DNA of 64,000 nt from an uncultured Bacilli bacterium (GCA_934183155.1 CAKPSB010000002.1:64834-128833); one strand, 5' to 3'; numbered from the stretch's first letter, positions 14 through 47,344 are shown. Notes: generated by a model from the letters alone, not told the origin. Translations and numbers: made by a program.

Positions 14-421
14 ATGATAAATGCAGGCACTGAAACACAAGAATTAAAACTTGGCAAAGTATCACCAGACAGTAAAGAAAAATACTATATTATAAATGTT
101 TCCAATTACAATGAAGCTAAAATAAGCGAAGTAGATATGACATATAATTTATCAATTAAAACAACAACCAATATCCCTGTTTCATATAAATTATATTTAA
201 ACGATAATACAGAAAATATCATTGGAACAAAACAGTTAATCACAGATAAAGATAATATGTATTTTTATAAATATAATAGTATCTCATCAGAGTTTAATAA
301 AAACATAAAAAAAACTGACAAATATAAATTAGCTATTAGTTTCGATGAAAAATATTCAGATGAAACATATCAAAGTTTAATCGATAGTGTAGAAATAACA
401 GTTACGGCAAAACAAAAATAA
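14..421 (+). CDS. hypothetical protein; the frame is open to the window start, so this is probably the C-terminal part of a larger secreted protein
   Basis: ORF in the six-frame track; its frame stays open back to nt 2; β-rich composition with no recognisable catalytic motif. Confidence 0.3.
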   Translation: MINAGTETQELKLGKVSPDSKEKYYIINVSNYNEAKISEVDMTYNLSIKTTTNIPVSYKLYLNDNTENIIGTKQLITDKDNMYFYKYNSISSEFNKNIKKTDKYKLAISFDEKYSDETYQSLIDSVEITVTAKQK

Positions 422-514
422 AAAAATTGTAAAGTATACAAATTTTTAAAAGCTTCACTTGCAAGTTTTGTCGAAACATGATAATATCATAATAGAAGAG
501 TAAGGAGAAAAAAT

Positions 515-1528
515 ATGACAAAAAATAATAAAAAGAAAAAGAAACAAAGACGATTATTATTAGCAATATATGCTCTAATAGGAACAGCTGCCCTATTAGG
601 AACAGCAACTTATGCATGGTTTACTGCTAATAAGACTGTTTCTGTTAACCCAATTGACGTTAACGTAACAGCTAAAAGTGGTTTACAAATATCAGCTGAT
701 GGACAAAATTGGAAATCAATTTTAACAAATACTGATATAACAGGAGCAAGCGGAAATTATAAAGCAGCTGTAAACCAAATTCCAAACACATTGGAACCAG
801 TTTCATCAGTTGGAACAATTGATACAACTGGTAAAATGGAAATGTTCTTAGGAACAGTAACTGCAAATGATGAAGGTAACTGGATTCTAAGTTCTACAAA
901 ATCTACTGAAACAAACGCTTCAGGAGATGCCTCAACAGGTGCATTTGTAGCATATGACCTATTCCTTAAATCTGAAACAGCTACTAAAATTTATTTAGGT
1001 GCTGATTCTAAAATCGTATTTGCTGATGCAAAAGATACTGGTATCAAAAATGCTACAAGAGTTGGCTTCGTAACATTAGGACATACTACAAGTGATGATA
1101 CTATTGCTAACATTCAAGGATTAAATACCGGAACATCTTCAACAGTTAAAATTTGGGAACCAAATTATGATGTACATACTTCATTCGGTGTTGCTAATGC
1201 CCGTGACACATATGCTATTAATACATTAACTGCCGCTGCAGGTAACGCAGCAGTAGCTTATGATGGAATTAAAGCTACCTTTGATAAAGCCGCTGGAATT
1301 ACTTTAGGTAATGCTAAACAAGCATCATTTGCTGACTACTTCAAAACTGTAACTCCAGATATTAAAACACCAGAAACTAATACTGATAGTAATGAACTTG
1401 TTGATTTAGAAGCCGGAGTTACAAAAATCAGAGTTTATATGTGGATTGAAGGACAAGATGTCGACTGTGAAAACAATGCATCAGGTGGAAAAATTTCATT
1501 CAGTTTAAAAATGAGCACAGAAGCTTAA
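515..1528 (+). CDS. TasA/camelysin-like secreted protein with a SipW-cognate-type signal peptide
   Basis: N-terminus is K-rich, then a hydrophobic stretch, then 'GTATYAWFTAN', which resembles the TasA 'GTWAAFND' SipW-cognate motif; RBS AAGGAGA upstream; terminator downstream. Confidence 0.5.
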   Translation: MTKNNKKKKKQRRLLLAIYALIGTAALLGTATYAWFTANKTVSVNPIDVNVTAKSGLQISADGQNWKSILTNTDITGASGNYKAAVNQIPNTLEPVSSVGTIDTTGKMEMFLGTVTANDEGNWILSSTKSTETNASGDASTGAFVAYDLFLKSETATKIYLGADSKIVFADAKDTGIKNATRVGFVTLGHTTSDDTIANIQGLNTGTSSTVKIWEPNYDVHTSFGVANARDTYAINTLTAAAGNAAVAYDGIKATFDKAAGITLGNAKQASFADYFKTVTPDIKTPETNTDSNELVDLEAGVTKIRVYMWIEGQDVDCENNASGGKISFSLKMSTEA

Positions 1529-1572
1529 AAATAGTATAATTATTGATATATATTTAATAAATACAAATATTA

Positions 1573-1600
1573 GAGTGATTTTTATCACTCTTTTATAATG
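1573..1600 (+). terminator. rho-independent terminator
   Basis: AGAGTGAT-tttt-ATCACTCT hairpin followed by a T-tract. Confidence 0.6.
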
Positions 1601-1764
1601 CCTTTTATTAAATTATCAATTTAATAAAATAAACACTTGTGCGGTTTAGAATAATCAAGTAAAATGTATATCTTTTTTGAAAAAACGAACGCTTATTAAA
1701 AACAATTGGTTGATAAAAAGATAACAAATTTAGGCAACAATCATACAATATTTTAGGTGATAAA

Positions 1765-2148
1765 ATGAACAATTTAAAAGTCGTAATCGACGCAGGACAT
1801 GGAGGCACAGATAGTGGTGCGGTAAGTGGAAATGTAAAAGAAAAAGATTTAACGTTAATGATTTCAAAATATATGCTTGAACAATTTAAAAATAAAGGAA
1901 TAGATTCTACCTTAATTAGAAATACAGATGAAAGTATTTCACCAGCTGAAAGAACAAAAAGAATATTAGATGCCTATGGTGATAAGTCCAATGTTATAAT
2001 AATTTCTAATCACATTAACGCATCTGGTGCGAATGGTAAGAATGTAGGCAAAGCAAGTAGTGTCTTGTTTGCTTTAAAACAAAAGAATTTTGGCTCAATG
2101 TTGAAATTCTTTTTTTGTATATCGTTAAAAAGTTTGTTTCGTAGTTAA
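1765..2148 (+). pseudogene. 5′ fragment of an N-acetylmuramoyl-L-alanine amidase gene (Amidase_3) interrupted by the integrative element; host-derived sequence ends near 2030, after which the reading frame runs into element DNA
   Basis: 'VVIDAGHGGTDSGA' and 'HINA' Amidase_3 motifs are present; the catalytic Glu region (GAEVY) is missing here and appears at 11731-11740 in the same frame after the GGTGC core. Confidence 0.65.
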
Positions 2149-2212
2149 TATATGAAGAATAATCGTAATAATTTGACATTTTTATAAAAAAATTACTCTG
2201 TATCGTAATAAA

Positions 2213-2241
2213 TTGACAAAAATTAAATATAGTATTATAAT
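2213..2241 (+). promoter_or_regulatory. consensus sigma-A-type promoter (TTGACA-17-TATAAT) driving the cargo genes
   Basis: TTGACA at 2213-2218, 17-nt spacer, TATAAT at 2236-2241; preceded by two direct copies of ATCGTAATAAWTTGACA at 2162-2178 and 2202-2218. Confidence 0.5.
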
Positions 2242-2267
2242 GTATATATAAGAAAGGAAGATGGATT

Positions 2268-3464
2268 ATGGTTATTCGTGAAAGATATTTAAAATTAATA
2301 AGACCATTTTATGATCAAGAGTTAATTAAAGTGTTAATTGGTATTAGACGTTCTGGAAAATCAGTTATTTTAAAACAAATAATAGATGAGCTAAAAGAAA
2401 ATAATGTTGATGATAATCATATTATCTATATTAACTTTGAAGATTACGATTATGAGGAATATACTGATCCTAAAAAGTTAAACAATTATGTTAAAGAAAG
2501 AATAATTGATGATAAAAAATATTATATATTCTTTGATGAAATTCAAAATGTTGATAAATGGGAAAAAGTTGTTAATTCATTAAGAGCAACAAAGAACACA
2601 TCTATTTTTATAACTGGTTCTAATAGTGATTTATTATCTAGTGATTTAGCAACCCATATTGCAGGAAGATATGTTAGTTTTAAAATAACTCCATTTACAT
2701 TTGATGAAGTTTGTAAATTATTAAATATTACAGATAATAGAGATATTGAAGATGCATTTAATGATTATATTAAATGGGGTGGAATGCCACAAAGATTTAT
2801 GCAAAAAGATGACATTTCAAGAAAAACTTATTTAAATGATATTTATGATTCAATAATAATAAAAGATATCGTAAAAAGATTTAATATTAAAGATATTGAT
2901 TTGTTAAATAGAATAGTTACTTATATTTTAACTACTCCATCTCAAGTATTTTCACCTGATAGTTTAAAAAAATATATGCAAAGTGATTCTAGAAATGTAT
3001 CATTAGAAACATTATATAATTATCTTGATTATATAACTCGTGCAAACCTTATTTCAAAAGCAGAAAGATATGATGTTAGAGGTAAAAGAATTCTTACAGG
3101 TAAATATAAATATTATTTAACTGATTTAGGTTTTACTAATATTTTAAGTGAAGGTAAGAAAGAGCAAATAGGTGCTTATTTAGAAAATATTGTTTATAAT
3201 GAACTAATTGCTAGAGGATATAGTGTTAATATTGGTACATTAGAAAATGGTGAAATAGATTTTATAGCAACAAGGTTCAATGAAAAAATATACATTCAAG
3301 TTACTTATATTTTAAGTGATGAAACAGTAATTGAAAGAGAATTTAATGCTTATAAAAAGATTGAAGATAACTATCCAAAATATGTTCTTTCAATGGATAA
3401 ATTTGATTTATCACAAAATGGAATAATTCATAAAAATATAATTGATTGGTTGTTAAAAAAATAA
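2268..3464 (+). CDS. AAA-family ATPase of the DUF4143 (COG1373) type
   Basis: Walker A 'GIRRSGKS', Walker B 'IFFDEIQ'; characteristic C-terminal DUF4143-like region; RBS GAAAGGAAG. Confidence 0.7.
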   Translation: MVIRERYLKLIRPFYDQELIKVLIGIRRSGKSVILKQIIDELKENNVDDNHIIYINFEDYDYEEYTDPKKLNNYVKERIIDDKKYYIFFDEIQNVDKWEKVVNSLRATKNTSIFITGSNSDLLSSDLATHIAGRYVSFKITPFTFDEVCKLLNITDNRDIEDAFNDYIKWGGMPQRFMQKDDISRKTYLNDIYDSIIIKDIVKRFNIKDIDLLNRIVTYILTTPSQVFSPDSLKKYMQSDSRNVSLETLYNYLDYITRANLISKAERYDVRGKRILTGKYKYYLTDLGFTNILSEGKKEQIGAYLENIVYNELIARGYSVNIGTLENGEIDFIATRFNEKIYIQVTYILSDETVIEREFNAYKKIEDNYPKYVLSMDKFDLSQNGIIHKNIIDWLLKK

Positions 3465-3586
3465 TACAAAAACATGGAATTTCAAATAATTAATTTGATT
3501 AAAGATATATTTTAATTATTAATTAAAATGACATCATGTAATTAAAATGACATCATGTATTTATTTCTATAAGGAGTTGGTTAGAA

Positions 3587-5695
3587 ATGGCAAATAAAAA
3601 TACAAATTTACAAAATGCTAAAAATAAAAAAGATGATGAATTTTATACAACATATGAGGATATCGAAAAAGAAATAATAAATTATAAGATACATTTTAAA
3701 AACAAAACAGTATTTTGTAATTGTGATGATCCATTTGAATCTAACTTTTGCAAGTATTTTTTGAAAAACTTTAATGTATTGGAAATAAAAAGATTAATAT
3801 GTACATCATACTATTCTTCTAAAATTATATCAAAAGAATTAAATTTCTTAAAAAAAGGTGAAAAAAAGTCTAGAACTAAAGGATACGTATTAGATATACA
3901 AAAATTTGTAGATACAAAAGAAGTAATATCAGATGATGTAATTTGTAATTTATTAAAAGAATCAGGCAATATAAAAGAATTAAAAGGTACAGGAGACTTT
4001 CAAAGTGATGAATGTTTAAACTACTTGAAAGAATCAGATATAGTCGTAACTAATCCACCATTTTCTTTATTTAGAGAATTTGTCTCTATTATCATGAAAT
4101 ATAAAAAGAAGTTCTTAATTGTTGGTAATCAAAATGCACTAACATATAAAGAAATATTTCCGTTGATAAAGAATGATGAATTATGGACTGGGTATCAGTT
4201 TGGAGAGATGAAATTTAGAGTGCCCAAAACTTCTAAACCTAGAACTACAAGATACTGGGTTGATGATACAGGACAAAAATGGAGAAGTTTAGGAAATGCA
4301 ATGTGGTTAACAAACATAGATAATGAACGAAGGCATAGAGAAATTAATTTAACAAAAAAATACAATTCAAAAGATTACCCAAAATATGATAATTTTGATG
4401 CAATAAATGTAAAAACAATAAATGACATACCATATGATTACTTTGGTATTATGGGAGTACCAATAACTATTATAAATAGGTATAATAGTGAGCAATTTGA
4501 AATTGTTGGAGAAGCTAATCATGGTTCTGATAATGAATATGATTTATTTAAACCAGTTTTAAATGGAAAGGAATTATATAAAAAAATATTGATTAGAAGA
4601 AGGTGTAAAGAAGTGAAAGAAAAAGAATTTGTTATTTTAGACTTATTTAGTGGTGCAGGTGGTTTTTCTTATGGTATGGAAAAAAACAAACATTTTAAGA
4701 CTGCTATTGCGTTAGATATAAATGAATCTGCACTAAAAACATTTAAACACAATATGCCAAATACAACAACAGTTTTAGGTGATATTACTAATGAAGAAAT
4801 AAAACAAAAAATTATTAAATTAAGCAAAGAGAAAAAGGTTAATATGATTATAGGTGGACCACCATGTCAAGGTTTTTCACTAAAAGGGAAAAAATTAGGA
4901 TTAAGTGATCCAAGAAATTTTTTATTTAACGAATATTTGAATATAGTTGAATCAATTAGACCAGAAGTGTTTGTGATAGAAAATGTAAAAGCATTATTGT
5001 CTACATCATCAGGATGGTTTAAGGAACAAATAATAAATAGAGTAAAAAGTATGGGTTATTATGTTGATTGTGGAATTTTGACAGCATCGGATTTTGGCGT
5101 ACCACAATCTAGACAAAGAGCTATATTTATTTGTTCAAAAAACAAAAAAATTGAATTGCCAACTATACAAAAAAGAAAAAAGGTGACAATTAGAGATGCG
5201 ATATTTGATTTGGCATATTTAAATTCTGGCGATGGAGAATTTGAACAAGAATATATAACATCGCCTATAAGTTCATATCAAAAACTTATGAGAAAAGGAA
5301 GTGTTAAATTATATAATCATAAAGCCTCTAATCATTCTGAGGTTGCAATAAAAAAACTTCAAATGATCCCACCAGAATGTGGTAAAGAACATTTGCCAAA
5401 GGAAATGCTTGGAAAACAAAAATTTAGTGGGACATGGGGGAGATTAAAATGGGACGATGTTTCTCCAACAATTGATACAAGATTTGATGCTTCATCGAAT
5501 GGGACAAATAATCATCCGTTTTTAAACAGGGCAATTACACCAAGAGAAGCGGCTAGAATTCAATCTTTTGACGATAAATTCGTTTTTTTAGGTACAAAAG
5601 TTTGTGTAAGAGAACAAATCGGTAATGCTGTGCCACCTTTATTGGCAAAAGCAATTGCTGATAAAATATATAATGAGATAGGAGTGGAATTATGA
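3587..5695 (+). CDS. bifunctional DNA methyltransferase: N-terminal M.EcoRI-family N6-adenine MTase domain fused to a C-terminal C5-cytosine (Dcm-type) MTase domain
   Basis: N-terminal half carries 'DDEFYTTYEDIE', 'CNCDDPFESNFCKYF' and 'DIVVTNPPFSLFREF', the M.EcoRI-family hallmarks. C-terminal half carries C5-MTase motifs I 'LFSGAGGFS', IV 'GGPPCQGFS', VI 'ENV', VIII 'QSRQRAIF' and X 'GNAVPP'. Confidence 0.8.
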   Translation: MANKNTNLQNAKNKKDDEFYTTYEDIEKEIINYKIHFKNKTVFCNCDDPFESNFCKYFLKNFNVLEIKRLICTSYYSSKIISKELNFLKKGEKKSRTKGYVLDIQKFVDTKEVISDDVICNLLKESGNIKELKGTGDFQSDECLNYLKESDIVVTNPPFSLFREFVSIIMKYKKKFLIVGNQNALTYKEIFPLIKNDELWTGYQFGEMKFRVPKTSKPRTTRYWVDDTGQKWRSLGNAMWLTNIDNERRHREINLTKKYNSKDYPKYDNFDAINVKTINDIPYDYFGIMGVPITIINRYNSEQFEIVGEANHGSDNEYDLFKPVLNGKELYKKILIRRRCKEVKEKEFVILDLFSGAGGFSYGMEKNKHFKTAIALDINESALKTFKHNMPNTTTVLGDITNEEIKQKIIKLSKEKKVNMIIGGPPCQGFSLKGKKLGLSDPRNFLFNEYLNIVESIRPEVFVIENVKALLSTSSGWFKEQIINRVKSMGYYVDCGILTASDFGVPQSRQRAIFICSKNKKIELPTIQKRKKVTIRDAIFDLAYLNSGDGEFEQEYITSPISSYQKLMRKGSVKLYNHKASNHSEVAIKKLQMIPPECGKEHLPKEMLGKQKFSGTWGRLKWDDVSPTIDTRFDASSNGTNNHPFLNRAITPREAARIQSFDDKFVFLGTKVCVREQIGNAVPPLLAKAIADKIYNEIGVEL

Positions 5696-6567
5696 ATATA
5701 GAAATGGCATATTTAATTGGAATGATATTAGGCAATGGAGAAATTCAAAAGGGTAATCACGAAACAATTGTAACTATTGATATACCACATAAAAATTTAT
5801 ATACTGACGATTTTAAGGATGTAAAAATATATGTAAAAGCTAGTATTACTGATATACGAGATATTGTTGAACCACTTATTGGAAGCAACTTAAAACTTAC
5901 ACAGGAAGATAGATCAACTATAATTTCTTTTGTTAAACCGAATGAAGAATATGTAATGAGGCAAATACTGAAATTTGTTGGAAATGGTCGTAAACATTCA
6001 ACTATGGAAATGAATCCCGATTTATTTAGTATGACAAGTGATGAAAAAAAATCATTGCTTAGAGGTATTGCGGATGTTACAGGATATATTAGAAAAAGTA
6101 ACATTGCTTTTGGACAAGAGGGAGCTCATAGAGTGTACATTGAAATTCCGTGTAATTGGAAAATGGTTATTGATATTGCAAACATGTTAAAAGACGTTGA
6201 TATTCCAATTCAAACAATAGATTTTGGACATCCTAATTTTAGAGATAGTAATTTAATAAAGTATAATGAAGGTATGCCTAATTATTGGAAAAAAGAGCAT
6301 CAAATTAAAATATATGCAAATGAATTTTTACCAATTGGGTTTAATATAAAACATAAACAAGAGGCTTTAGAAAAATATAGTGATGAACTTTTAAAACATC
6401 TTAATCCAGAAAAGACTCATAAATATTATTGGGAAAAAAACATAAAGAAAGGTAAAGAAAAGTTAAAACATCCAGGTGAAAATGACCCATCCTTACCTAA
6501 GGAAATACGGGGAAAACATTTTAATTCATGGACAGAGTTAGCAAGGGTATTGGGTTATGATAAATAA
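5692..6567 (+). CDS. hypothetical protein translationally coupled to the methyltransferase (ATGA overlap); candidate restriction/effector component
   Basis: Start overlaps the MTase stop. Two weak LAGLIDADG-like segments ('LIGMILGNGE', 'LRGIADVTG'). No secure family assignment from sequence alone. Confidence 0.35.
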   Translation: MNIEMAYLIGMILGNGEIQKGNHETIVTIDIPHKNLYTDDFKDVKIYVKASITDIRDIVEPLIGSNLKLTQEDRSTIISFVKPNEEYVMRQILKFVGNGRKHSTMEMNPDLFSMTSDEKKSLLRGIADVTGYIRKSNIAFGQEGAHRVYIEIPCNWKMVIDIANMLKDVDIPIQTIDFGHPNFRDSNLIKYNEGMPNYWKKEHQIKIYANEFLPIGFNIKHKQEALEKYSDELLKHLNPEKTHKYYWEKNIKKGKEKLKHPGENDPSLPKEIRGKHFNSWTELARVLGYDK

Positions 6568-7054
6568 TGTTTCTAAAGAAATTGAATTGTATGAGCCAAT
6601 GAGAAAATGGTTGCAAAAATATTTAGAGGAAAAGTATAAAAATGCTGAAGTAATAACTATTGATTCACATGCTAGAACTTTAGATTCATATTTGAATCAA
6701 TTTGGCTTGCTTGATCAATATCCTCTAACTGTTGGGCTAGACATTCAGGTAGATGTTTTAGGTATAGTAAAGTACAAGAATAGTACTAATCTTATTTTCA
6801 TTGAGGCAAAAAAGACGCAACTTAATCTTCATGATTTGGGACAATTATGGGCTTATTGTAAGTTGTGTGATCCTCTTGAGGCCTTTCTACTATCATCATA
6901 TGGATTGGGAAGTTTAAACAAATTATTCAATAATTTATTGAGAGATGATTTATTAGATTTTGGTGATGGTAAAAAGATTAAAAAAATGCAAGTTGGGAAG
7001 TGGAATATTATAACTAACAATATAGATTATAATTCGTTAATTCCTAAAATTTAG
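6557..7054 (+). CDS. small PD-(D/E)xK nuclease-fold protein (putative)
   Basis: 'GLDIQVDVLG…IFIEAKK' fits the D…(D/E)xK restriction-endonuclease-like pattern; overlaps the upstream gene by 11 nt. Confidence 0.4.
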   Translation: MINNVSKEIELYEPMRKWLQKYLEEKYKNAEVITIDSHARTLDSYLNQFGLLDQYPLTVGLDIQVDVLGIVKYKNSTNLIFIEAKKTQLNLHDLGQLWAYCKLCDPLEAFLLSSYGLGSLNKLFNNLLRDDLLDFGDGKKIKKMQVGKWNIITNNIDYNSLIPKI

Positions 7055-7092
7055 TAGTTATACTATTACATGGATGAGGTAGGAGATGAAAT

Positions 7093-9234
7093 ATGGAATT
7101 ATTTTTAAAAAAAGTTGAAAACGCATTTGGAATTAAAAGTTTACATTTAAATTTGGAAAATGATAAGAAAATGTATCAAGAATTAATATATTCTAAAAAT
7201 GGTTCTTTTAAAACTTCTTTTTCAAATACTTTATATAATTTAAGTAATGGTACGTTAGAAAATGTATTTGATAGATTAACAGATGAAAAAGCTATTTTAG
7301 ATATATCTATTTTAGAAAATGGTAAAGAAATAAAAAATTTTGACAATCGATTTGTTGTTTTTTCTAGAGAAATATATGAACAGCATTCTAAATTATTGTC
7401 TGATTATAGTTCTGAATTAGAGACACTTACTATCGATAAAAAAAATAGTGAATATATAAATGAATTATTAACTGAGGAAACTATAGAAATCAAATTACAG
7501 ATTGATAATTATTTAAAAGGTACTGGTTTAAACTTTGAAATATTACTTGATATGTTTTCTAATTTAGAAGATGGATACTTAGATAGAATAATTCAATTAC
7601 TGAATACAATTATTAATCATGAAGCTCAAGACATTAGTGAAATAAATATAAAAAAAATATATCAGAAAGCATATGATATTGTTGATCAGAGCGAATTTCA
7701 AAGCAAAATATCAAATTACATTCAGGTATTAGAAAATAAAATTAATGCTCAACTTTTTGACAAAAATTTTAACGAAAATAATTGCTTACAGTTTATAAAT
7801 AATGTTGATAAAGCAAAATATTTATCAGAAACAAAATCTAGGGGCTTATTTTTAAAAGATAAAGTATACTATGATATTGACGAAGTAAAAAAAATATTTG
7901 AAGAAGAAATTAAAAAAATATCAAAAGACCCTGAAATAATTGAACAAAGTAAAGAAATTACTAAATTAATGGGAACTGCTAAAGAATCTGAGTTTTTAAA
8001 AGAATCAATTCAAAAAAACCCTTTGCTTGTTAAACAGTTATCTGCTGGTAGAAAAAATATTCTTTTATCATATTTAAAATCTTCAAGTATAGATTACAAT
8101 TATTGGTTAGAAGTTGTAAAAAAAGCAAAAAAAGAATTAAATAATGTTTTAAAAATTGCGCAGGATAAACAAACGAATTTTGAACGTGCAATTGAAATAT
8201 ACAAAAATAGATTTCATCCAATTTTTGACATCAAAATAGTTAATAAGGCAGAGTCCATGTTAGGCATAAAAACTCCTACTATTACTTTTTATCATAATAG
8301 ATATTGTGAGATTCCTGTCTCAGAAACAAAATTAAGCCAAATTTTATCTTCTGGAGAAAAAACAACGCTTAATATATTAAAATTTATAGTTGAATATGAA
8401 AATTGCAAAAAATATCACCCATTTATAATTTTAGATGATATCGTAGAAACTTTTGATTATTCCAATCGCTATGCTTTTATGGAATACATAAATGATTTAG
8501 TAAATTTGGATGTTCCAACAATTGTTATGACGCATAATTTTGAATTTTATAGAACAGTTAGTAAAAGAATACCAAAATTAAGAAAAAGTGTTGCATCTGC
8601 CAACTCTAACGGCGTTGTAGATATTCAAACTAATAATCGAATTAACAAAAACATGGAAAATGTTTTAAAGTGCTCAAATATTTATGATTTCTTTTGTGCC
8701 ATTCCATATTTAAGAGAAATTAAAACAATTTTATTGGAAGACACCAAAACATTAGATTCGTGCCTTCATTACAAAGAAAACACTTCTAAATTACAAATTA
8801 AAGATATATTATTACAATTTCCAAGTAATGCTATAAAAAGTCTTAAAATAGATGAAAATGATATTTACATGGAAAAGTTGTTTGAAATAGCAGACAATTT
8901 ATCTGGATTTGATGATTTTGATATTGTAAAAAAAACAATTTTATCACTTTCTTGCAGACTTTTAATAGAAAGAAAAATAATTGCAAACAATTTTAATTTA
9001 TTAACTAATATTAATACGAATCAAACTGCACAGCTTCTTGATTTATACGGTGAAAAGTTATTTCCAAATGTAAAAAAATATCTTGAAGCAGTACAGTTAT
9101 CAACACCTGAGTTTATTCATGCTAATGCATTTATGTATGAACCATTAATTGACATAAATGGAAAATACTTGTTTGAATTATATAATCAAATTAAAAAAAT
9201 ACCTGATGAAAAAATATGGAAAAATAAAAATTAA
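7093..9234 (+). CDS. SMC/RecF/ABC-fold ATPase with a long coiled-coil-like insertion, a degenerate Walker A and an uncharacterised ~230-aa C-terminal domain (defence-associated)
   Basis: N-terminal 'SKNGSFKTS' (degenerate GxxxxGKT); signature-like 'LSSGEKTTLNIL'; Walker B/D-loop 'FIILDDIVETFD'; H-loop 'IVMTHNF'. Confidence 0.5.
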   Translation: MELFLKKVENAFGIKSLHLNLENDKKMYQELIYSKNGSFKTSFSNTLYNLSNGTLENVFDRLTDEKAILDISILENGKEIKNFDNRFVVFSREIYEQHSKLLSDYSSELETLTIDKKNSEYINELLTEETIEIKLQIDNYLKGTGLNFEILLDMFSNLEDGYLDRIIQLLNTIINHEAQDISEINIKKIYQKAYDIVDQSEFQSKISNYIQVLENKINAQLFDKNFNENNCLQFINNVDKAKYLSETKSRGLFLKDKVYYDIDEVKKIFEEEIKKISKDPEIIEQSKEITKLMGTAKESEFLKESIQKNPLLVKQLSAGRKNILLSYLKSSSIDYNYWLEVVKKAKKELNNVLKIAQDKQTNFERAIEIYKNRFHPIFDIKIVNKAESMLGIKTPTITFYHNRYCEIPVSETKLSQILSSGEKTTLNILKFIVEYENCKKYHPFIILDDIVETFDYSNRYAFMEYINDLVNLDVPTIVMTHNFEFYRTVSKRIPKLRKSVASANSNGVVDIQTNNRINKNMENVLKCSNIYDFFCAIPYLREIKTILLEDTKTLDSCLHYKENTSKLQIKDILLQFPSNAIKSLKIDENDIYMEKLFEIADNLSGFDDFDIVKKTILSLSCRLLIERKIIANNFNLLTNINTNQTAQLLDLYGEKLFPNVKKYLEAVQLSTPEFIHANAFMYEPLIDINGKYLFELYNQIKKIPDEKIWKNKN

Positions 9235-9642
9235 TGGTTAAAAAACAATGTTTTTTTACATAATTTTGTCATTTTCGTTTACTTAATAACGTTCTCTTTT
9301 TTGACATTGACTTCTAATTTATTTACGATATAATTATTATAATATAGCAATAGTTCTAGGATATGAACTATTAGATGCTAAAATACTATATTCAGTTTAT
9401 GAGTATAGTATTTTTTTGTAAGGAGGAATTGTTATCTAAAATTATATAAACAAAAAGTATGTACCAAGAAATTATAAAAAAATAAATAATTAAGGTACCT
9501 AAAAAAGTTGGTTTATGTGTGAAAAGAGGTTCATAATTAGCAATTTTGTTAATCCAAAAGTATGTCATTTGTATAACCGTTTGTGTGTCTAACTGCTATT
9601 TTTGATACAAAATTTGCTATTTTTAGTTAACCCAATAGTATG

Positions 9643-9746
9643 ACATTTATTTTAATGTATGACAAAGTAGTCTTTCACAATCCCTTTAAAATAGGGCTAA
9701 ACTCCCCACTGGGAAGTTGTTTGTCAGCCATCCTTATCCTGCTAAA
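9643..9746 (+). ncRNA. candidate structured RNA/DNA element inside the island's non-coding region (function unknown)
   Basis: Locally GC-rich. Outer inverted repeat TGACAAA…TTTGTCA encloses two hairpins (CCCT-ttaaaat-AGGG and TCCC-cact-GGGA). No ORF. Confidence 0.25.
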
Positions 9747-9924
9747 AACAAACACGCGGAATATTTAGAAAATTAGAGAATTAAAGTCATAAGTTATGTA
9801 CCCAATTTTATATAAAAACAATAAAAAAATTTATTAAGGAGGAGTGATTTATAAGATGTAAAAGTAATATAAATTTAAGTTTTAGGAATATATTTAAGTA
9901 TGAAACCAAAAGGGGTAGATTGGT

Positions 9925-10110
9925 ATGATAATAACTGAAACTTTTAAAAATGGTGGTAAAGATATTGGGGCTTTATTACAAGAATATGTATGCTTAATAC
10001 TTAAATATAAAGATGAAAATGGTAAAATAGATGACACAAATGATGGTAAGAGAGTTATAATGGAATCGGCAAACAAGATGCTATGCAAAAGAAAGGAGAA
10101 TAATGTATAG
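9925..10110 (+). CDS. small hypothetical protein overlapping the recombinase start; possible accessory or directionality factor
   Basis: 61-aa ORF preceded by GGGG RBS-like sequence; stop overlaps the recombinase ATG. Confidence 0.25.
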   Translation: MIITETFKNGGKDIGALLQEYVCLILKYKDENGKIDDTNDGKRVIMESANKMLCKRKENNV

Positions 10111-11677
10111 CACAGTAAAACCGCCATCATTTTATAATGTAGGAATATATATAAGATTATCGCAAGAAGATGAGGATAAAGCACATAAAAGAGAGTCTGA
10201 AAGCGAAAGTGTATTAAATCAAAGAAGTTTACTTATGAACTTTTTGAGGGATAATGGATTTGTTTTAACTGATGAGTATGTTGATGATGGATATTCAGGT
10301 ACTAACTTTGATAGACCAGCATTTAAAAGATTACTTGAAGACATAGAAAAAGGAAAAATAAATTGTGTCATAACTAAAGACTTATCAAGATTAGGTAGAG
10401 ATTATATCAAATGTGGTTATTATATAGAACAATATTTTCCATTAAAGAAAGTTAGATATATATCTATACTAGATAATGTAGATACTTTTCTAGATTCTGC
10501 AAATAATGATATAGCACCTTTCAAAGCTTTATTTAATGATATGACTAGTAAAGATACATCAAAGAAAATAAAATCAATATTAAGAGATAAAAAAGTGAAA
10601 GGTAAGTTTATAGGTAGTAAACCCAGTTTTGGCTATATGAGAGATCCACTTGATAAAGGACATCTAGTGCCAAACCCAGACACAGCATGGATAGTAAAAA
10701 GAATATTTAATGAAGTATCAAGAGGAGATAAAATATCAGATATAATTGAAAGATTAAATAATGAGAATATTCCAACACCAAGTGCATATAAACAAATAAA
10801 AAAATCAAAAAGACAAATAAATGGATATATTTGGACTTGTAGTACGATTAACAAAATATTAAAAAATAGAATGTATACTGGTGATATGATTCAAAATGTT
10901 CAGACAAAATTAAACTATAAATCACAAAAGAGAATATGTCTTTCTAGTGAATATTGGATAATTGTAGAAAATACTCATGAACCATTAGTAAATAGGGTAA
11001 TATTTAATCAAATACAGACAAGTGCTAATAGAACTAGAACAGTAAAATTAAACCGTCCACAGAGGCTATTAGAGGGCTTACTTTATTGCAAAGAGTGTGG
11101 TAATAAGCTAACGGTTAGTTATAGGGAAAAGCGCAATTACTGGTCTATAAATTGCAATAAATATTCTAGAAGTCCAAGACAAAGATTATGTGAACCACAT
11201 TTTTCAGAATATAATAGTTTTGAAAAAATAATTTTAAATCAAATCAAAAAAACTTGTAAAAAATATATAGAAAAAGTTGACATTGATAGTTTAGTATCTA
11301 ATATAAAAAGTGAGAAGGATAACAAGGAAGATTTGATTATAGAAAAACAAAAATTAGAAAGTAATATCAAAGAACTACAACTAAAAATAGATGCTTTATA
11401 TGAAGATAAATATAATGGGATAATCTCAGTTGATACTTATACAAGATTATCTTCTAATACAGAAAATCTAATAAGAACATACAACTCTAGAATAAAAGAA
11501 TTAGAAAATTCTATTAATGAAGTTCCTAAAAAACATAATGATGAAGAAATAAAACAAAAAATAAAAGAATTAATTAGTATGAAAAAACCTACTAGAGAAT
11601 TATTATTTATACTAGTAGATAAAATAATTGTTGATAAAGATAAAAATGTAGAAATAATATATAATTTTAATAAATAA
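10103..11677 (+). CDS. large serine recombinase (resolvase/invertase N-terminal catalytic domain, recombinase domain, zinc ribbon and coiled-coil)
   Basis: 'VGIYIRLSQED', 'YVDDGYSGTNFDRPAFKRLLEDI', 'ITKDLSRLGRD', Cys-rich 'CKECGNKL…C' zinc ribbon, C-terminal coiled-coil; 524 aa. Confidence 0.85.
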   Translation: MYSTVKPPSFYNVGIYIRLSQEDEDKAHKRESESESVLNQRSLLMNFLRDNGFVLTDEYVDDGYSGTNFDRPAFKRLLEDIEKGKINCVITKDLSRLGRDYIKCGYYIEQYFPLKKVRYISILDNVDTFLDSANNDIAPFKALFNDMTSKDTSKKIKSILRDKKVKGKFIGSKPSFGYMRDPLDKGHLVPNPDTAWIVKRIFNEVSRGDKISDIIERLNNENIPTPSAYKQIKKSKRQINGYIWTCSTINKILKNRMYTGDMIQNVQTKLNYKSQKRICLSSEYWIIVENTHEPLVNRVIFNQIQTSANRTRTVKLNRPQRLLEGLLYCKECGNKLTVSYREKRNYWSINCNKYSRSPRQRLCEPHFSEYNSFEKIILNQIKKTCKKYIEKVDIDSLVSNIKSEKDNKEDLIIEKQKLESNIKELQLKIDALYEDKYNGIISVDTYTRLSSNTENLIRTYNSRIKELENSINEVPKKHNDEEIKQKIKELISMKKPTRELLFILVDKIIVDKDKNVEIIYNFNK

Positions 11678-11730
11678 AAGGTTAGTTAATACCTGCCTAC
11701 ATTCCACGACTTCGGGGGAGGAGAAGGTGC

Positions 11731-12661
11731 TGAAGTAATATACGCTTTAAGAGATAATAGTAATTTAGCAAAAAATATATTAACCTCATTAGGAAATGCT
11801 GGCCAAAAAATGAGAAAATATTTTCAAAGAAGATTACCAAGTAATACATCAAAAGATTATTACTTTATCCACAGAAATACAGGTCAAAATACAAAACCAG
11901 TAATTGTAGAATATGGTTTTATTGATAATCCTAAAGATTTAGCAAAAATTCAAGAAAATTATAAAAAATATGTTGATGCAGTGGTTGATGCAGTCATAAA
12001 AACTTATGAAGGTAAAACAATAGAAAACTTACCATCAAATGGAAAATATTATACAGTAAAAGCAGGCGATAGCCTATGGAAAATCGCTAAAGAAAATAAT
12101 ACAACAGTAGATGAAATTAAAAAATTAAATAACTTAAAATCCAACAATTTAGTAGTCGGTCAAACATTAAAATTAAGTGAAAAAACAAATGACAGCGATA
12201 AATATATTGTAATGAGTGGCGATAGTCTATGGAAAATCGCCAACCAATATGGTCTTACCGTAAATCAGTTAAAACAATTAAATAATTTAACAAGCGATAA
12301 TCTAGAAATTGGCCAAGAATTAAAAATAAAAAACAATATGGCAAAAGATGAGACAAATATATATACAGTAAAAGCAGGCGATAGTCTATGGAAAATTGCA
12401 AGCCAATATGGTCTTACCGTAAATCAGTTAAAGCAATTAAATAATTTAACAAGTGATAATTTAGAAATTGGCCAAAAGTTAAAAATAAAAAACAATATAT
12501 CAAAAGATGAGACAAATATATATACAGTAAAAGCAGGTGATAGTCTTTGGAATATTGCAAACAGATTCAAAACAACTGTTAATGAATTAAAAAAGTTAAA
12601 TAATTTAACTAACAATTATTTAACAATAGGACAAACATTAAAAATTCCAACTACCGATTAA
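11731..12661 (+). pseudogene. 3′ portion of the interrupted amidase gene: remainder of the Amidase_3 domain plus four LysM repeats. The amidase frame is open upstream through element DNA from 11690 (stop codon at 11687-11689); the six-frame-track ORF starts at an internal ATG at 11810
   Basis: 'GGGEGAEVIYALRDN…', 'YYFIHRNTGQNTKPVIVEYGFIDNPKD'; four LysM motifs 'YTVKAGDSLWKIA…'. Confidence 0.65.
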
Positions 12662-12666
12662 ACAAA

Positions 12667-13710
12667 TTATTCAATATTTTTAACAAGGTCAAATTTATAT
12701 CCTTGTTTTTTCATATTATTTATAAAAGAATCCAAAGCAAGATAATTACCTTTATTCTTAGGATGCATCAAATAAATTGCACCTCTGTGAGCTCTTATAG
12801 TAAGCTCATTTAAAGCTTTTTCCTTAGTAACATCATCTTCAAAATCCAAATAATCAGCACTATAAAAATAAGTTTTATACCCCAAATCCTTCATTATTTG
12901 AAGAGTTCTAAAGCTCCATTCACCCCGAGGCTCCCTATAAATTTTTTCCATTTGCTTGCCAGTTGCCTTATTATATGTATCCTCTACGCTAACAATCTCT
13001 TCTAAATATTTATCAAAATTTTCCTTGTTTGCCAAAGAAGGCATAGACAAATGTCGAGAAGTATGATTAGCAATAGTATGTCCCATCTCATCCATTTGCT
13101 TAATCAAAGTAGCATTATCTTCAATAAATTTTCTACATAAGAAAAAAGTAGCCTTGACATTATTTTTGTTTAAAACATCAACTATTTCCTTCAAATACGT
13201 ATCATTACTGCCCTCATCAAAAGTTAAATATAAAGTCTTTTCATCCGGCCCCATAAAAAAGGCATTAAATTTTTTAAGTTCATTAATATCAGCTCCACCA
13301 GAAGGCCTCTCACCATTTTTTTTATTATTACTCCACCAACCCCTTAAAGTATTATCAATATCATCATACTCGTCTTTATAAATAGGCAAATTGTTTGCAA
13401 TAACCTTTATAAATCTATGCGCCTTAGCAATTTCTCCTTCTTTATTTGTAACAAAATATATTAATTCATAAGTTCCTTCTTTACTTAAAACTTTTCCCTT
13501 AATCCTTACCTTATCAGTAAGATCACCATTATCATCATAAGCTTTAAAACCAGCCTCTTCATATTTTTCATTCAAATTAATAGTCACAATATGTTGACCA
13601 TTTAGTATTATTTTAGGAACAGTTGACGTGCTTTTTGTAAATTTTGAGTAAATAAAAAAACTAGCAGAGGCAAAAAAAACAATATAAATAATAAACTTTT
13701 TTTTCACCAA
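12667..13710 (-). CDS. membrane-anchored polysaccharide deacetylase (NodB homology domain; peptidoglycan/chitooligosaccharide deacetylase family)
   Basis: 'LTFDEGSND', 'HTIANHTSRH', N-terminal TM anchor. Confidence 0.75.
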   Translation of the reverse strand: MVKKKFIIYIVFFASASFFIYSKFTKSTSTVPKIILNGQHIVTINLNEKYEEAGFKAYDDNGDLTDKVRIKGKVLSKEGTYELIYFVTNKEGEIAKAHRFIKVIANNLPIYKDEYDDIDNTLRGWWSNNKKNGERPSGGADINELKKFNAFFMGPDEKTLYLTFDEGSNDTYLKEIVDVLNKNNVKATFFLCRKFIEDNATLIKQMDEMGHTIANHTSRHLSMPSLANKENFDKYLEEIVSVEDTYNKATGKQMEKIYREPRGEWSFRTLQIMKDLGYKTYFYSADYLDFEDDVTKEKALNELTIRAHRGAIYLMHPKNKGNYLALDSFINNMKKQGYKFDLVKNIE

Positions 13711-20005: not shown

Positions 20006-21802
20006 ATGAAGAAAAAAGGATTTACATTAATAGAATTACTAGCAGTAATAACTATATTAGGAATTATATTATTAATAATAGTTCCAAACGTTACGGGTAT
20101 GTTAAACCGTTCAAAAGGAAGAATAAATGAAGAACAAAAAAGAGCATTAATAGATAGTGCCAAAAAATGGGGGACAAACAATTTATTACTCAAAAACGGT
20201 AAAGCGTATTATAATAACAATCAAAAAAGATATGTAACCTTAGGTGAATTAAAAAACTATGGATACCTAGAAGATAAAAAAATTAAAAATTTAATCAATA
20301 AATCAGATATTCCTGATGAAACAAAAATATGTATAAATTATAAAAACAATCAATTTGTCTATTCAATTAATGATGATAATATGTGTGAAAACAATTACCC
20401 TATTATGATGAAAAGAGATACGTCTAAAGCATTCTGGCAATCTGATTATAAAAATAAAATATCTACAGTAGCTGTTCTTGATAATAAAAACGTTCCTTCA
20501 ACTGTAGTAGCATCATGGGATGTATCAGAGAAACAAAACAAATCAGTTATGGCTTGGATTATAGATGATCCAAATAATAGCGGTATGTATAAGCTTTATA
20601 TTGGTGGTGATGGAGGAGTTGCTGCACCAGCTGATTCAAGTAATTTATTTGATGGGGGTATCGAAGGCCAAGAAGAAAATTTTGGTAAAACAAAGACAAT
20701 GAATTTAGCAAAATTAGATACATCAAGAGTAACAAATATGGAGGGGATGTTTGCTGGTTGTGGTTCTCTTACGAACTTAGATGTAAGTAACTTTGATACA
20801 AGCAAAGTAACAAATATGAGTTATATGTTTTCTGGCTGTGAGTCTCTTACCAGCTTAGCTTTAAATAGCTTCGATACAAGCAAAGTAACAGATATGAGTG
20901 GTATGTTTAGCTATAATTCTCTTACAAGTTTAGATGTAAGTAACTTTAATACAAGCAATGTAACAAATATGGCTTCTATGTTTAGGTACTGTAGTTCTCT
21001 TACCAACTTAGACATAAGTAACTTTAATACAAGCAAAGTAACAGATATGAGTGGTATGTTTAGCGATAGTTCTTTTACCAGCTTGGATTTAAGCAACTTT
21101 AATACAAGCAAAGTAACAGATATGAGTCGAATGTTTTATAATTATAGGTCTCTTACAAGCTTAGATTTAAGTAATTTTAACACAAGTAATGTAACAAATA
21201 TGAGTTATATGTTTGGCAGTTGTGGTTCTCTTACCAGCTTGGATTTAAGCAACTTTAATACAAGCAAAGTAACAAATATGGAAGCTATGTTTGATAGTTG
21301 TAGGGCTCTTACCAGCTTGGATTTAAGCAACTTTAATACAAGCAAAGTAACAAATATGTATTATATGTTTTATGACTGTAGTTCTCTTACAAACTTAGAC
21401 GTAAGTAACTTTAATACAAGCAAAGTAACAGATATGGGTTATATGTTTTTTCGCTGTAGTACTCTTACCAGCTTAGATTTAAGTAAATTTGATACCAGCA
21501 ATGTAGCAAATATGAGTGGTATGTTTAATTATTGTAGTTCTCTTACCAACTTAGATGTAAGTAACTTTAATACAAGCAAAGTAACAGATATGGGTTATAT
21601 GTTTAGGTATTGTAAATCTCTTACCAACCTAAAATTGTGTTCATTTGATACTTCTAAAGTAACAAATATGTATTCTATGTTTGAGGGTACTTCAAAATTA
21701 ACTAAAGTTTATGTTGGACCTAAATGGACAACGGCAAATGCTACTACAACTAGTATGTTTACTAGGAGTGGAGTATCAGCAGTAACAACAAATCAATGTT
21801 AA
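20006..21802 (+). CDS. prepilin-type N-terminal domain fused to a BspA/DUF285 leucine-rich-repeat surface protein (paralogue 1; ~13 repeats of 26 aa)
   Basis: 'MKKKGFTLIELLAVITIL' class-III signal; repeats 'SLTSLDLSNFNTSKVTNMSYMFxxC'; conserved C-terminus '…VSAVTTNQC'. Confidence 0.75.
   Translation: MKKKGFTLIELLAVITILGIILLIIVPNVTGMLNRSKGRINEEQKRALIDSAKKWGTNNLLLKNGKAYYNNNQKRYVTLGELKNYGYLEDKKIKNLINKSDIPDETKICINYKNNQFVYSINDDNMCENNYPIMMKRDTSKAFWQSDYKNKISTVAVLDNKNVPSTVVASWDVSEKQNKSVMAWIIDDPNNSGMYKLYIGGDGGVAAPADSSNLFDGGIEGQEENFGKTKTMNLAKLDTSRVTNMEGMFAGCGSLTNLDVSNFDTSKVTNMSYMFSGCESLTSLALNSFDTSKVTDMSGMFSYNSLTSLDVSNFNTSNVTNMASMFRYCSSLTNLDISNFNTSKVTDMSGMFSDSSFTSLDLSNFNTSKVTDMSRMFYNYRSLTSLDLSNFNTSNVTNMSYMFGSCGSLTSLDLSNFNTSKVTNMEAMFDSCRALTSLDLSNFNTSKVTNMYYMFYDCSSLTNLDVSNFNTSKVTDMGYMFFRCSTLTSLDLSKFDTSNVANMSGMFNYCSSLTNLDVSNFNTSKVTDMGYMFRYCKSLTNLKLCSFDTSKVTNMYSMFEGTSKLTKVYVGPKWTTANATTTSMFTRSGVSAVTTNQC
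20690..21660 (+). repeat. tandem 78-bp coding repeats (26-aa DUF285/BspA LRR units) in paralogue 1
   Basis: Periodic 'agcttagat(g/t)taagtaactttaatacaagcaaagtaaca(a/g)atatg' units. Confidence 0.8.
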
Positions 21803-21835
21803 ATAATAAAATTAATAAAAAGTTGAGGTTATAAA

Positions 21836-23782: not shown

Positions 23783-23815
23783 ATAATAAAATTAATAAAA
23801 AGTTGAGGTTATAAA

Positions 23816-25051
23816 ATGAAGAAAAAAGGTTTTACATTAATAGAATTACTAGCAGTAATAACTATATTAGGAATTATATTATTAATAGTAGTTCCAAACG
23901 GTACGGGTATGTTAAACCGTTCAAAAGAAAGAATAAATGAAGAACAAAAAAGAACATTAATGGATAGTGTTAAAAAGTGGGGGACAAGTAACTTAACGCT
24001 TAAAAATGACAGAGTATATTATAATAATAGTCCCAAATCGTATGTTACTATAGGTGAGTTAAAAAACTATGGATATTTAGAAGATAAAAAAATTAAAAAT
24101 CTAACTAATAAATCAGACATTTCGGATGAGACAAAAATATGTATAAATTACAAAAACAATCAATTTGTCTATTCAATTAATGATGATAATAAGTGCAAAA
24201 ACAATTACCCTATGATGATGGAAAGAGATGTGTCTAAAGCTTTTTGGACTTATGAGTCAAGAATATCTACTATAGATGTTCTTGACAATAAAAGCGTACC
24301 CAATAATGCAGTAGCATCATGGGACGTATCAGAGAAACAAAATAAATCAGTTATGGCTTGGATTATAGATGATCCAAATAATAGTTATATGTATAAACTT
24401 TATATTGGTGGTGATGGTGGTGTTGCCGCCCCAGCTGATTCATATTCATTATTTGGTGGGTATGAAAGTAGTTTTGATAGAACAAAGACAATGAATTTAG
24501 CAAAATTAGATACATCTAAAGTAGCAAATATGAGCGAAATGTTTGCCTATTGTAATTCTCTTACCAGCTTAGATGTAAGTAACTTTGATACAAGTAATGT
24601 ACTAAATATGCGTGCTATGTTTGCCGGTTGTAATAATCTTACTGATTTAAATATAAGTGGCTTTGATACAAACAATGTAAAGAACATGGCATATATGTTT
24701 TATAATTGTAATTCCCTTAAAACTTTAAATTTAAGTTCATTTGATACATCTAAAGTAATATATATGGATAACATGTTTTACAATTGTAATTCCCTTACAA
24801 GCTTAGATTTAAACAACTTTAATACAAGTAGTGTAACAATTATGGATTCAATGTTTGCCGAGTGTAGTTCTCTTACAAGCCTAAAATTATGTTCATTCGA
24901 CACATCAAAAACAACCATAATGAGTTATATATTCAGTGGCACTTCAAAATTAACTAATGTTTACGTTGGAAGCAAATGGAAAACTGTAGCTACAGCAACT
25001 AATATGTTTACTGGTAGTGGCGTATCAGCAGTAACAGAGGGTCAATGTTAA
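23816..25051 (+). CDS. prepilin-type N-terminal domain fused to a BspA/DUF285 LRR surface protein (paralogue 3; ~6 repeats)
   Basis: Same N-terminal module and same upstream spacer; shorter repeat array; ends '…VSAVTEGQC'. Confidence 0.75.
   Translation: MKKKGFTLIELLAVITILGIILLIVVPNGTGMLNRSKERINEEQKRTLMDSVKKWGTSNLTLKNDRVYYNNSPKSYVTIGELKNYGYLEDKKIKNLTNKSDISDETKICINYKNNQFVYSINDDNKCKNNYPMMMERDVSKAFWTYESRISTIDVLDNKSVPNNAVASWDVSEKQNKSVMAWIIDDPNNSYMYKLYIGGDGGVAAPADSYSLFGGYESSFDRTKTMNLAKLDTSKVANMSEMFAYCNSLTSLDVSNFDTSNVLNMRAMFAGCNNLTDLNISGFDTNNVKNMAYMFYNCNSLKTLNLSSFDTSKVIYMDNMFYNCNSLTSLDLNNFNTSSVTIMDSMFAECSSLTSLKLCSFDTSKTTIMSYIFSGTSKLTNVYVGSKWKTVATATNMFTGSGVSAVTEGQC
24500..24930 (+). repeat. tandem 78-bp coding repeats in paralogue 3
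   Basis: Same unit as paralogue 1, more divergent. Confidence 0.7.
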
Positions 25052-28145: not shown

Positions 28146-28212
28146 TATAAAATTATCAGTTTTTTATCATTTTTAGACCATAAAAGCATATCTTAAAATG
28201 AGGGGTGATAAT

Positions 28213-44429: not shown

Positions 44430-44541
44430 AAAATCACCAAATAAATTGTATCACAATTATAAAGAAAGTACAATTTCAAAAAATTTATTGTTATTAGCCT
44501 TAATTTTTGATATAATTTATATGATAGGGAAACGTGATAAT

Positions 44542-45256: not shown

Positions 45257-45265
45257 AGGGATATC

Positions 45266-46000: not shown

Positions 46001-46011
46001 AGGAGGATACC

Positions 46012-47334: not shown

Positions 47335-47344
47335 GGAGGATAAA

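Follow-up and report, generated by a model that had tools for sequence, protein, structure and literature searches.

How could a cell-wall amidase gene still serve its host with a mobile element lodged in the middle of its catalytic domain? The question is raised by a stretch of 64,000 nucleotides (nt) from an uncultured Bacilli bacterium (GCA_934183155.1, CAKPSB010000002.1:64834-128833; hereafter the window), in which the two parts of an Amidase_3-LysM gene lie on either side of an element that encodes a large serine recombinase. A first-pass annotation of this sequence had likened the arrangement to the skin (sigK) and spoVFB/spoVR intervening elements, which are excised during sporulation. 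On the evidence presented here, it is virtually certain that the element has the architecture of a large serine recombinase island. That this non-phage island sits in a mother-cell-type gene of a spore former and is excised during sporulation we consider probable, with real room for doubt, the timing of excision being drawn from analogy, from the nature of the target gene and from the signal of selection on it.

Exact junctions of the split amidase gene

The N-terminal Amidase_3 fragment corresponds to an open reading frame (ORF) at 1765-2148 (+) that matches positions 1-83 of the 174 in the Pfam profile, and the remainder of the domain, followed by four LysM domains, picks up 3' of the recombinase gene. 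Joined as the first-pass annotation had proposed, the two fragments yield a complete domain (Pfam), and the orthologous gene is unsplit at all 80 related genome loci. Two empty-site contigs of the same species (L081 and L082) were found to be collinear with the window and to lack the island, with 96-97% nucleotide identity in both flanks, and two full-length relatives (P0001 and P0002, the latter encoded on L081) were 96% identical to the joined protein. Base-level alignment to these contigs showed that host DNA stops at 2027 and restarts at 11719; the island therefore occupies 2028-11718.

The crossover could be assigned to a GG dinucleotide, which is the sole sequence common to attL, attR and attB, with no larger target duplication. 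With a slash at the junction, the sites read GCATCTGG/TGCG for attL (in longer form GCATCTGG/TGCGAATGG), CGGGGG/AGGAGAAGGTGC for attR (CTTCGGGGG/AGGAGAAGGTGCTGAAG) and GCATCTGG/AGGAGAAGGCGC for attB (GCATCTGG/AGGAGAAGGCGCTGAAG), placing the insertion point at codon 88/89 of the gene. The corrected join (1765-2027 + 11719-12661) is in frame and comprises 1,206 nt and 401 codons; the restored protein reads ...NASGGEGAEVIY... (...HINASGGEGAEVIY..., that is, S-G-G-E-G-A-E-V) across the join, and its first 194 residues are, in silico, the same as those of the intact L081 allele. The claim that the amidase is split within its catalytic domain by a large serine recombinase element that could be removed in frame without leaving a scar thus held up in silico.

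The proposed core of the exchange did not. It had been placed at a shared GGTGC, which is indeed present at 2026-2030 and 11726-11730 and gives an in-frame join of 398 residues (Pfam Amidase_3 positions 1-173 of 174, with four LysM domains), but its right-hand copy is host sequence 9 bp inside the gene, where the empty-site allele has GGCGC. The empty-site alignment thereby rules out both the GGTGC core and the S-G-A-E-V product, three residues having been missed; the frame is continuous on the recomputed coordinates as well. We also set aside the argument that the element-side peptide mimics the displaced codons as attP/attB pairs do (SSVLFALKQKN against AEVIYALRDNS): it is out of register, lying 6 codons off the actual exchange point; against shuffled residues it is only marginal (p about 0.03), although 0 of 119 element-derived peptides matched its score; and it is not conserved, as the elements on contigs L091 and L105, whose P' arms are related to that of the window, have short read-through tails that lack the peptide.

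Recombination module of a non-phage island

The recombinase harbors the Pfam domains PF00239 (Resolvase), PF07508 (Recombinase) and PF13408 (Zn_ribbon_recom), all above cutoff, and matches a PHROG integrase family at 4.7e-93. Its sequence YIRLSQEDE aligns with YERLSRDDD of TnpX, the motif of the catalytic serine, and its closest solved relatives are the TnpX catalytic domain (1e-25) and SprA (5e-15), the latter being the closest full-length structure. The attP site rebuilt from the two ends of the island, TGCCTACATTC-CACGACTTCGGG-GG-TGCGAATGGTAA-GAATGTAGGCA, has perfect 11-bp inverted repeats, 12 nt to each side of the GG, and an inner TTCG..CGAA symmetry; this predicted layout is as expected for a serine integrase with a non-palindromic central dinucleotide. 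The attP of L091 is similarly symmetric (TTTTGGACTTCA-GT-GG-TG-TGAAGTCCAAAA), and arms related to the window's P' arm occur in both L091 and L105.

The recombinase gene is preceded by a small ORF whose stop overlaps its start. A homologous core of ~30 residues (x-I-x-E-T/S-F-K...L-I-x-N-Y-I-K) lies directly 5' of the recombinase in six other members, with recombinases 45-74% identical, and accompanies every recombinase examined. By analogy with the partners of known serine integrases, the 61-residue product is proposed to be a recombination directionality factor, for which it is a directly testable candidate. The entire 2.4-kb recombination module (9249-11679) is 95% identical at the nucleotide level to that of L105, which belongs to another species; it includes most of a stretch at 9235-9924 for which an Rfam scan (of 1500-12800) gave no match, the scan as a whole returning chance snoRNA-type matches only.

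A search of PHROGs with the island's genes returned an integrase, a DNA methyltransferase and families of unknown function, and none of the phage structural, lysis or replication families. The island is therefore not a prophage, and a prophage remnant was rejected on the same grounds.

A 72%-identical recombinase was observed on another contig (L088:11608-11680), in an element with the conjugative-transfer genes MobL, TraG and ArdC. It is followed by TTTTGGACTTCGGGGGTGTGAAGT, which looks like an intact attP core and not like an attR in the amidase gene.

One dinucleotide shared by several island classes

The site proved to be occupied widely. The protein encoded upstream of it was found in identical form on 22 contigs, with all 3 of the distinct places shown being interrupted, and the identical downstream PGM protein on 23 contigs, with all 10 of the places shown being interrupted. 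On the attR side we distinguished four P arms (the types of the window, L083, L095 and L097/L103) and five gene contents: that of the window; type I HsdM/HsdS with a Bro-N protein and a TPR protein; type I HsdR; Fic, MazG, AIPR and an SLFN-like helicase; and one in which the short stretch covered contained no recognisable gene. Wherever an attR junction was present, it fell at the same GG, and the recombinases are 46-72% identical. Near-identical strains thus have islands of at least four recombinase/attP classes, differing in defence cargo, that all end at this GG. In two other species the orthologous gene is split at the same GG as well, by a ~5.5-kb island with TIR and Fic genes (L091-L094) and by islands with the window's recombination module and different methyltransferases (L105-L107).

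The protein of the N-terminal fragment was found on 35 contigs, compared to 5 contigs for three intact alleles (P0001, P0002 and P0004). The intact alleles examined at the DNA level (L081 and L082) form a sister subclade, and exact look-up among about 15 billion protein sequences found no intact copy of any of five alleles reconstituted from the interrupted clade. Several independent integrations by related integrases, at the same position of the same domain, have been put forward as the criterion for regulated gene integrity (Mageeney et al. 2020, PMC7192596); such a pattern was found here, one species having four attP/recombinase classes at this GG of the Amidase_3 domain and two others using it as well.

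It is possible, if somewhat short of an even chance, that a mother-cell gene serves here as the shared site of several serine recombinases, whose interchangeable anti-phage islands would be inherited via the spore and removed whenever the amidase is needed. If true, the turnover of defence genes would be linked to the split between spore line and mother cell in a little-studied group of small-genome gut Bacilli, and sites of this kind could act as hotspots at which one defence island takes the place of another. The biology of defence islands and the rearrangement of genes in development are seldom treated in one context. The natural set of serine recombinases at this locus (46-72% identical, with distinct attP arms and one attB) may also help to study and engineer site specificity.

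A second serine-recombinase element was observed in the amidase gene of L092 (7785-9460, compared with L091), encoding a 534-residue recombinase with DUF4368 and lying at the DAGHGG codons. That gene also holds the TIR/Fic island, giving two distinct att sites in one gene.

Promoter, protein type and selection of the target gene

The amidase gene is preceded by a predicted sigma-K-type promoter, one of 6 strict matches to this type in the whole window on both strands. Among 67 orthologues at loci with a definable start, 51 carry AC-N16/17-CATAnnnTA within 80 nt upstream, with a spacer of 16 nt in 36 and of 17 nt in 15, and the consensus across them is ttttAaC-N-taCATATAtTA. The background frequency of the motif is 1.2e-4 per nt, and ~1% of other genes have it (control: ORFs of >=150 codons, 55 of 865 positive including the amidase genes). 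Both sigma-E and sigma-K are mother-cell sigma factors. The motif fits the sigma-K consensus of B. subtilis (KCACM and GCATANNNTA), and its -35 is unlike the TYATATTT of sigma-E (PMC3416734).

The Amidase_3 domain begins at residue 6 and, since the protein thus starts directly with its catalytic domain, no signal peptide is present. On the basis of this and of the conserved sigma-K-type promoter, we infer that the amidase is a mother-cell-type gene. Its LysM repeats exceed the SafA/ExsA domain cutoff. The description of the catalytic domain as CwlC-like was borne out as far as the N-terminal Amidase_3 domain and the missing signal peptide are concerned, but not as orthology: CwlC ends in SPOR repeats, the window amidase in four LysM domains. 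In layout and inferred timing the protein may nevertheless resemble CwlC of B. subtilis, a lytic amidase switched on late in the mother cell (PMC517825). An assignment to CwlD, suggested by an adjoining PdaA-like gene, was also considered, CwlD being the only amidase equivalog match in NCBIfam; it was rejected on account of the score (72.7 bits, far below the cutoff of 221.6), the LysM repeats and the direct catalytic start.

Although split, the gene is under constraint. The pairwise ratio of nonsynonymous to synonymous polymorphism (pN/pS) among five interrupted alleles was 0.03-0.14 at a pS of 4-9%, and the amidase domain differed from that of an intact allele by 7 synonymous and 0 nonsynonymous changes. 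Unless every insertion is of very recent date, a gene that is constrained though divided within its catalytic domain would have to be restored at a frequency that matters.

Excision in the mother cell and its alternatives

Recombination between attL and attR at the GG would produce an in-frame amidase gene and a circle with the defence cargo. As a mother-cell gene, the amidase would be dispensable for the lineage that passes on the genome, and the island could persist there. From the mother cell, in its terminal differentiation, the island would be removed by the recombinase, probably with the small ORF product as directionality factor; this course of events is modelled on skin, SPbeta and gin. 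Both the sigma-K-type promoter of the amidase and the split, rejoinable architecture therefore fit intervening elements of the skin/gin type, since a mother-cell target is what defines the setting of skin, vfbin, vrin and gin elements, and to this extent the resemblance to skin and spoVFB/spoVR stands; it does not extend to a sigma-E/K-type promoter within the element. As for a trigger, no plus-strand terminator was predicted within the window's island, and in L091 a terminator-like hairpin lies between the amidase fragment and the small ORF; that excision is triggered by transcription running on from the amidase promoter into the island, which has the same orientation, is speculation.

Several points weigh against removal in the mother cell. 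No strict sigma-K-type motif was found in the island, the looser sigma-E/K-type matches lie inside coding regions or on the opposite strand, with none preceding the small ORF or the recombinase gene, and the best promoter matches in the island are of the sigma-A type; only the L083, L095 and L097 classes have a sigma-E-like -10 ahead of the small ORF, at -23 to -26. TnpX, the closest solved relative of the recombinase, both excises and inserts without a directionality factor. Exact searches returned 0 matches for the attP junction in IMG/VR and the JGI metagenomes, and 0 for attB in the JGI metagenomes, collections which may lack the organism; the missing attP and clade-specific attB are not informative in assemblies, because they are to be expected if excision is confined to mother cells. 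For the other island classes, the shared GG was read on the attR side. Sporulation of the host is inferred from few genes. One C-terminal fragment, that of L097, has an indel in the LysM repeats (an assembly artefact or real decay), all others being open, and the purifying selection could reflect time spent uninterrupted if islands turn over quickly.

Much of this would equally suit an ordinary mobile defence island for which the amidase gene is a convenient attB, a dispensable gene being knocked out and the element leaving sporadically and autonomously, as TnpX elements do, for transfer or turnover. The sigma-A-type promoters in the island, the failure to find a strict sigma-K-type motif there or a sigma-E/K-type match ahead of the small ORF or recombinase gene, the kinship with TnpX, the 72%-identical recombinase found beside MobL and TraG, the rapid turnover of cargo and recombinase classes at the site and the intact alleles in the sister subclade all speak for such an island. 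We nonetheless regard it as an unlikely explanation, if by no means a negligible one, in view of the open fragments and low pN/pS across wholly interrupted alleles that are split inside the catalytic domain, the failure to find an intact version of these alleles on record, the conserved mother-cell-type promoter of the target and the observation that relatives of the element appear to split another mother-cell gene, cotJC.

The pattern of multiple independent insertions that marks regulated gene integrity would also be compatible with a reversible, population-level switch like that of the Listeria comK phage, in which the island leaves and re-enters the gene in growing cells, switching amidase expression or defence content with no link to the mother cell, and the GG core and intact recombinase would permit both directions. 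Such toggling would have no obvious phenotype in vegetative cells if the product lacks a signal peptide and its promoter is of the sigma-K type, and no episomal attP contig turned up in the two collections scanned; we thus hold a switch to be very improbable. A chimeric assembly, or a decayed pseudogene whose parts join in frame by chance, might be suspected from the metagenomic origin of the data and the broken L097 fragment, but is effectively refuted: the identical arrangement occurs on many independent contigs from different samples and assemblers (the N-terminal fragment protein on 35), contig L085 matches the window at 100% over 11.5 kb, and the junction falls exactly at a symmetric attP and restores the domain perfectly.

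Comparison with known intervening elements

The closest known case is gin, in gerE of B. cereus ATCC10987, a non-prophage element with restriction-modification cargo, the recombinase GirC and the 42-residue GirX (PMC5595907). Like gin, the window's element is a non-phage island of lower GC with restriction-modification cargo, a large serine recombinase and a tiny partner ORF, it splits the coding region of what is probably a mother-cell gene, and its precise excision would restore the frame (in silico, for the window). It differs from gin in its target, an amidase instead of the GerE regulator; in having one recombinase per island, compared to three in gin; in its 2-bp core, compared to the 9-bp shared sequence reported for gin; and in that several recombinase/attP classes share one site in one species. 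Sporulation-specific excision, for the island described here, is proposed by analogy.

The spoIVCA gene of skin has a mother-cell promoter, and none was found in the window's island. In B. subtilis skin, skr overlaps the 5' end of spoIVCA (PMC6957869), and a skin element is also present in Clostridioides difficile (skin(Cd), PMC5025042). The island shares with skin the large serine recombinase, the split of a putative mother-cell gene and a candidate directionality-factor gene overlapping the 5' end of the recombinase gene (SpoIVCA and Skr in skin). Skin is a degraded prophage, whereas the island has no phage genes, and sigK is essential for late sporulation, whereas the loss of one amidase may be tolerated. 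SPbeta, too, unlike the island, is a phage, active and 134 kb in length. In spsM, its serine integrase SprA and directionality factor SprB restore a mother-cell envelope gene (PMC4191935, PMC5499854). The island is alike in its serine recombinase, its candidate directionality factor and its putative mother-cell target, and SprA is the full-length solved structure closest to the window's recombinase.

By catalytic domain, the recombinase is closest to TnpX of Tn4451 from Clostridium perfringens. Tn4451 is likewise a non-phage element that a large serine recombinase moves, passing through a circular form and crossing over at 2 bp. Its cores are GA, its many targets are loosely related and it carries chloramphenicol resistance, whereas the window's family has GG as its core and a single, highly specific site inside a gene.

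We found no earlier report of an amidase-gene target of this kind in the open-access literature searched. New are the target gene, the uncultured lineage of the host and the finding that several recombinase classes with interchangeable defence cargo share one dinucleotide. If excision during sporulation is confirmed, the amidase and its host lineage would join the few sporulation genes and hosts for which a split by an excisable element is on record.

Island content and feature coordinates

The GC content of the island is about 25.5% (measured on 2031-11730), compared to 28.1% for the window, and the seven genes that follow the N-terminal fragment are all co-oriented with the amidase gene. The predicted cargo consists of type II methyltransferases with probable endonucleases and the candidate defence genes PDC-S01 and PDC-S46 (Table 1). 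The product of 5692-6567 had no match in Pfam, NCBIfam, PADLOC or PHROGs, and its best match in the PDB, a designed protein at E 0.019, was not significant; likewise, no significant match was obtained for that of 6557-7054 in Pfam, PADLOC or PHROGs.

Table 1. Coordinates of the amidase gene, the island and its attachment sites in the window, with junction sequences
Feature	Position	Strand	Basis or remark
Amidase sigma-K-type promoter AC-N16-CATACAATA (predicted)	1724-1750	+	Ends 14 nt before ATG
Amidase 5' segment, codons 1-87 plus 2 nt	1765-2027	+	DAGHGG and NHINA motifs; homology to empty site L081 stops at 2027
attL crossover GG	2026-2027	+	attL/attR/attB comparison
Integrated island	2028-11718	+	9,691 bp; missing from empty-site contigs L081/L082
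P' arm of attP	2028-2050	+	Inverted-repeat arm GAATGTAGGCA at 2040-2050
Sigma-A-type promoter TTGACA-17-TATAAT, perfect	2213-2241	+	Before first cargo gene; consensus match only
AAA_14/DUF4143 ATPase, PADLOC candidate defence PDC-S01	2268-3464	+	Pfam; PADLOC 6.2e-150
Fused EcoRI-type N6-adenine and C5-cytosine DNA methyltransferase	3587-5695	+	Pfam 4e-120, 2e-70; PADLOC MTase_II
Protein without family match, overlapping methyltransferase stop	5692-6567	+	Restriction endonuclease candidate from position only
165-residue protein without family match, overlapping preceding gene	6557-7054	+	
SMC_N-like ATPase, PADLOC candidate defence PDC-S46	7093-9234	+	PADLOC 1.5e-98; Pfam SMC_N weak, below cutoff
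~690 nt without convincing ORF	9235-9924	+	From 9249 part of conserved recombination module
Sigma-A-like promoter TTGACT-16-TATAAT	9307-9334	+	Promoter scan
Small ORF, 61 residues	9925-10110	+	Overlaps recombinase start by 8 nt
Large serine recombinase, 524 residues	10103-11677	+	Adjoins attR
P arm of attP	11694-11716	+	Inverted-repeat arm TGCCTACATTC at 11694-11704
attR crossover GG	11717-11718	+	attL/attR/attB comparison
Amidase 3' segment	11719-12661	+	Rest of Amidase_3 including VEYGF, and four LysM domains
attL junction sequence			GCATCTGGTGCGAATGG
attR junction sequence			ACTTCGGGGGAGGAGAAGG
attB junction sequence			AACGCATCTGGAGGAGAAGGTGCTGAAG
attP junction sequences			ACGACTTCGGGGGTGCGAATGG, ACGACTTCGGGGGTGCGAATGGTAAG

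Two observations concern the PDC-S01 gene. Contig L086 (11250-21014; ena:ERZ27286946 k141_240235) has the attL and PDC-S01 gene of the window and is the same up to window position 3496, beyond which lie a second AAA_14/DUF4143 gene, spoVAC-spoVAD-spoVAEB, a two-component system and a gene for a dockerin protein; the spoVA stretch could be island cargo (compare mobile spoVA operons) or the result of a rearrangement or chimera, either being possible. In two related species (L011:8692-9894 and L020:3588-4778), an AAA_14/DUF4143 (PDC-S01-like) gene lies directly 5' of the unsplit amidase gene.

Host and neighbouring genes

The genomes closest to the window are assemblies of uncultured gut 'Bacilli bacterium', such as CAG:822 and Candidatus Coprosoma, and not Clostridium; two complete chromosomes among them measure about 1.5 Mb. 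The first-pass annotation had called the host a spore former on the strength of cotE and spoVB in the window. CotE was confirmed (28198-28746, Pfam 1.5e-46); the other gene encodes a SpoVB-like flippase (55491-56783, -), which scored 311 bits against TIGR02900, below the cutoff of 372. Related contigs have spoVA, cotJB/cotJC and SleB-like genes. Together, CotE and the conserved sigma-K-type promoter would point to the formation of endospores in a gut lineage of small genome size that is known from metagenomes only. The samples that contain the strain include ERZ27287415 and the Hadza metagenomes.

Adjoining the amidase gene and convergent with it lies a gene (12667-13710, -) for a polysaccharide deacetylase whose best NCBIfam match is PdaA, at 188 bits and below the cutoff of 298. 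PdaA is a spore-cortex enzyme, and this gene is thus a second spore-related, peptidoglycan-modifying candidate beside the target.

In a related genome (L090:1-21581; GCA_031556545.1, JAVBST010000005.1), the mother-cell coat gene cotJC appears to be split as well. Its N-terminal fragment (MWSYEKKLQYPV...QYGGP*) directly follows cotJB, and the Mn-catalase part resumes ~21 kb further on; between the two parts are three large serine recombinase genes, one of which encodes a protein 70% identical to the window's.

Upstream of the amidase gene, both in the window (14-1528) and in L081 (1-9765), is a cluster of genes with SipW-dependent (TasA-like) signal peptides, which in L081 also includes a gene of >2,300 codons and a weak Peptidase_S24 match, a possible SipW-like signal peptidase. 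Three tandem paralogues with prepilin-type N-terminal domains and DUF285 repeats occupy 20006-25051; near-identical strains (L095-L104) vary in the number and length of these paralogues, suggestive of a hypervariable locus for surface proteins. Finally, 44446-49509 holds a putative Tad/Flp-type pilus cluster, judged by eye from ORF translations, with a candidate secretion ATPase and multi-pass membrane proteins.

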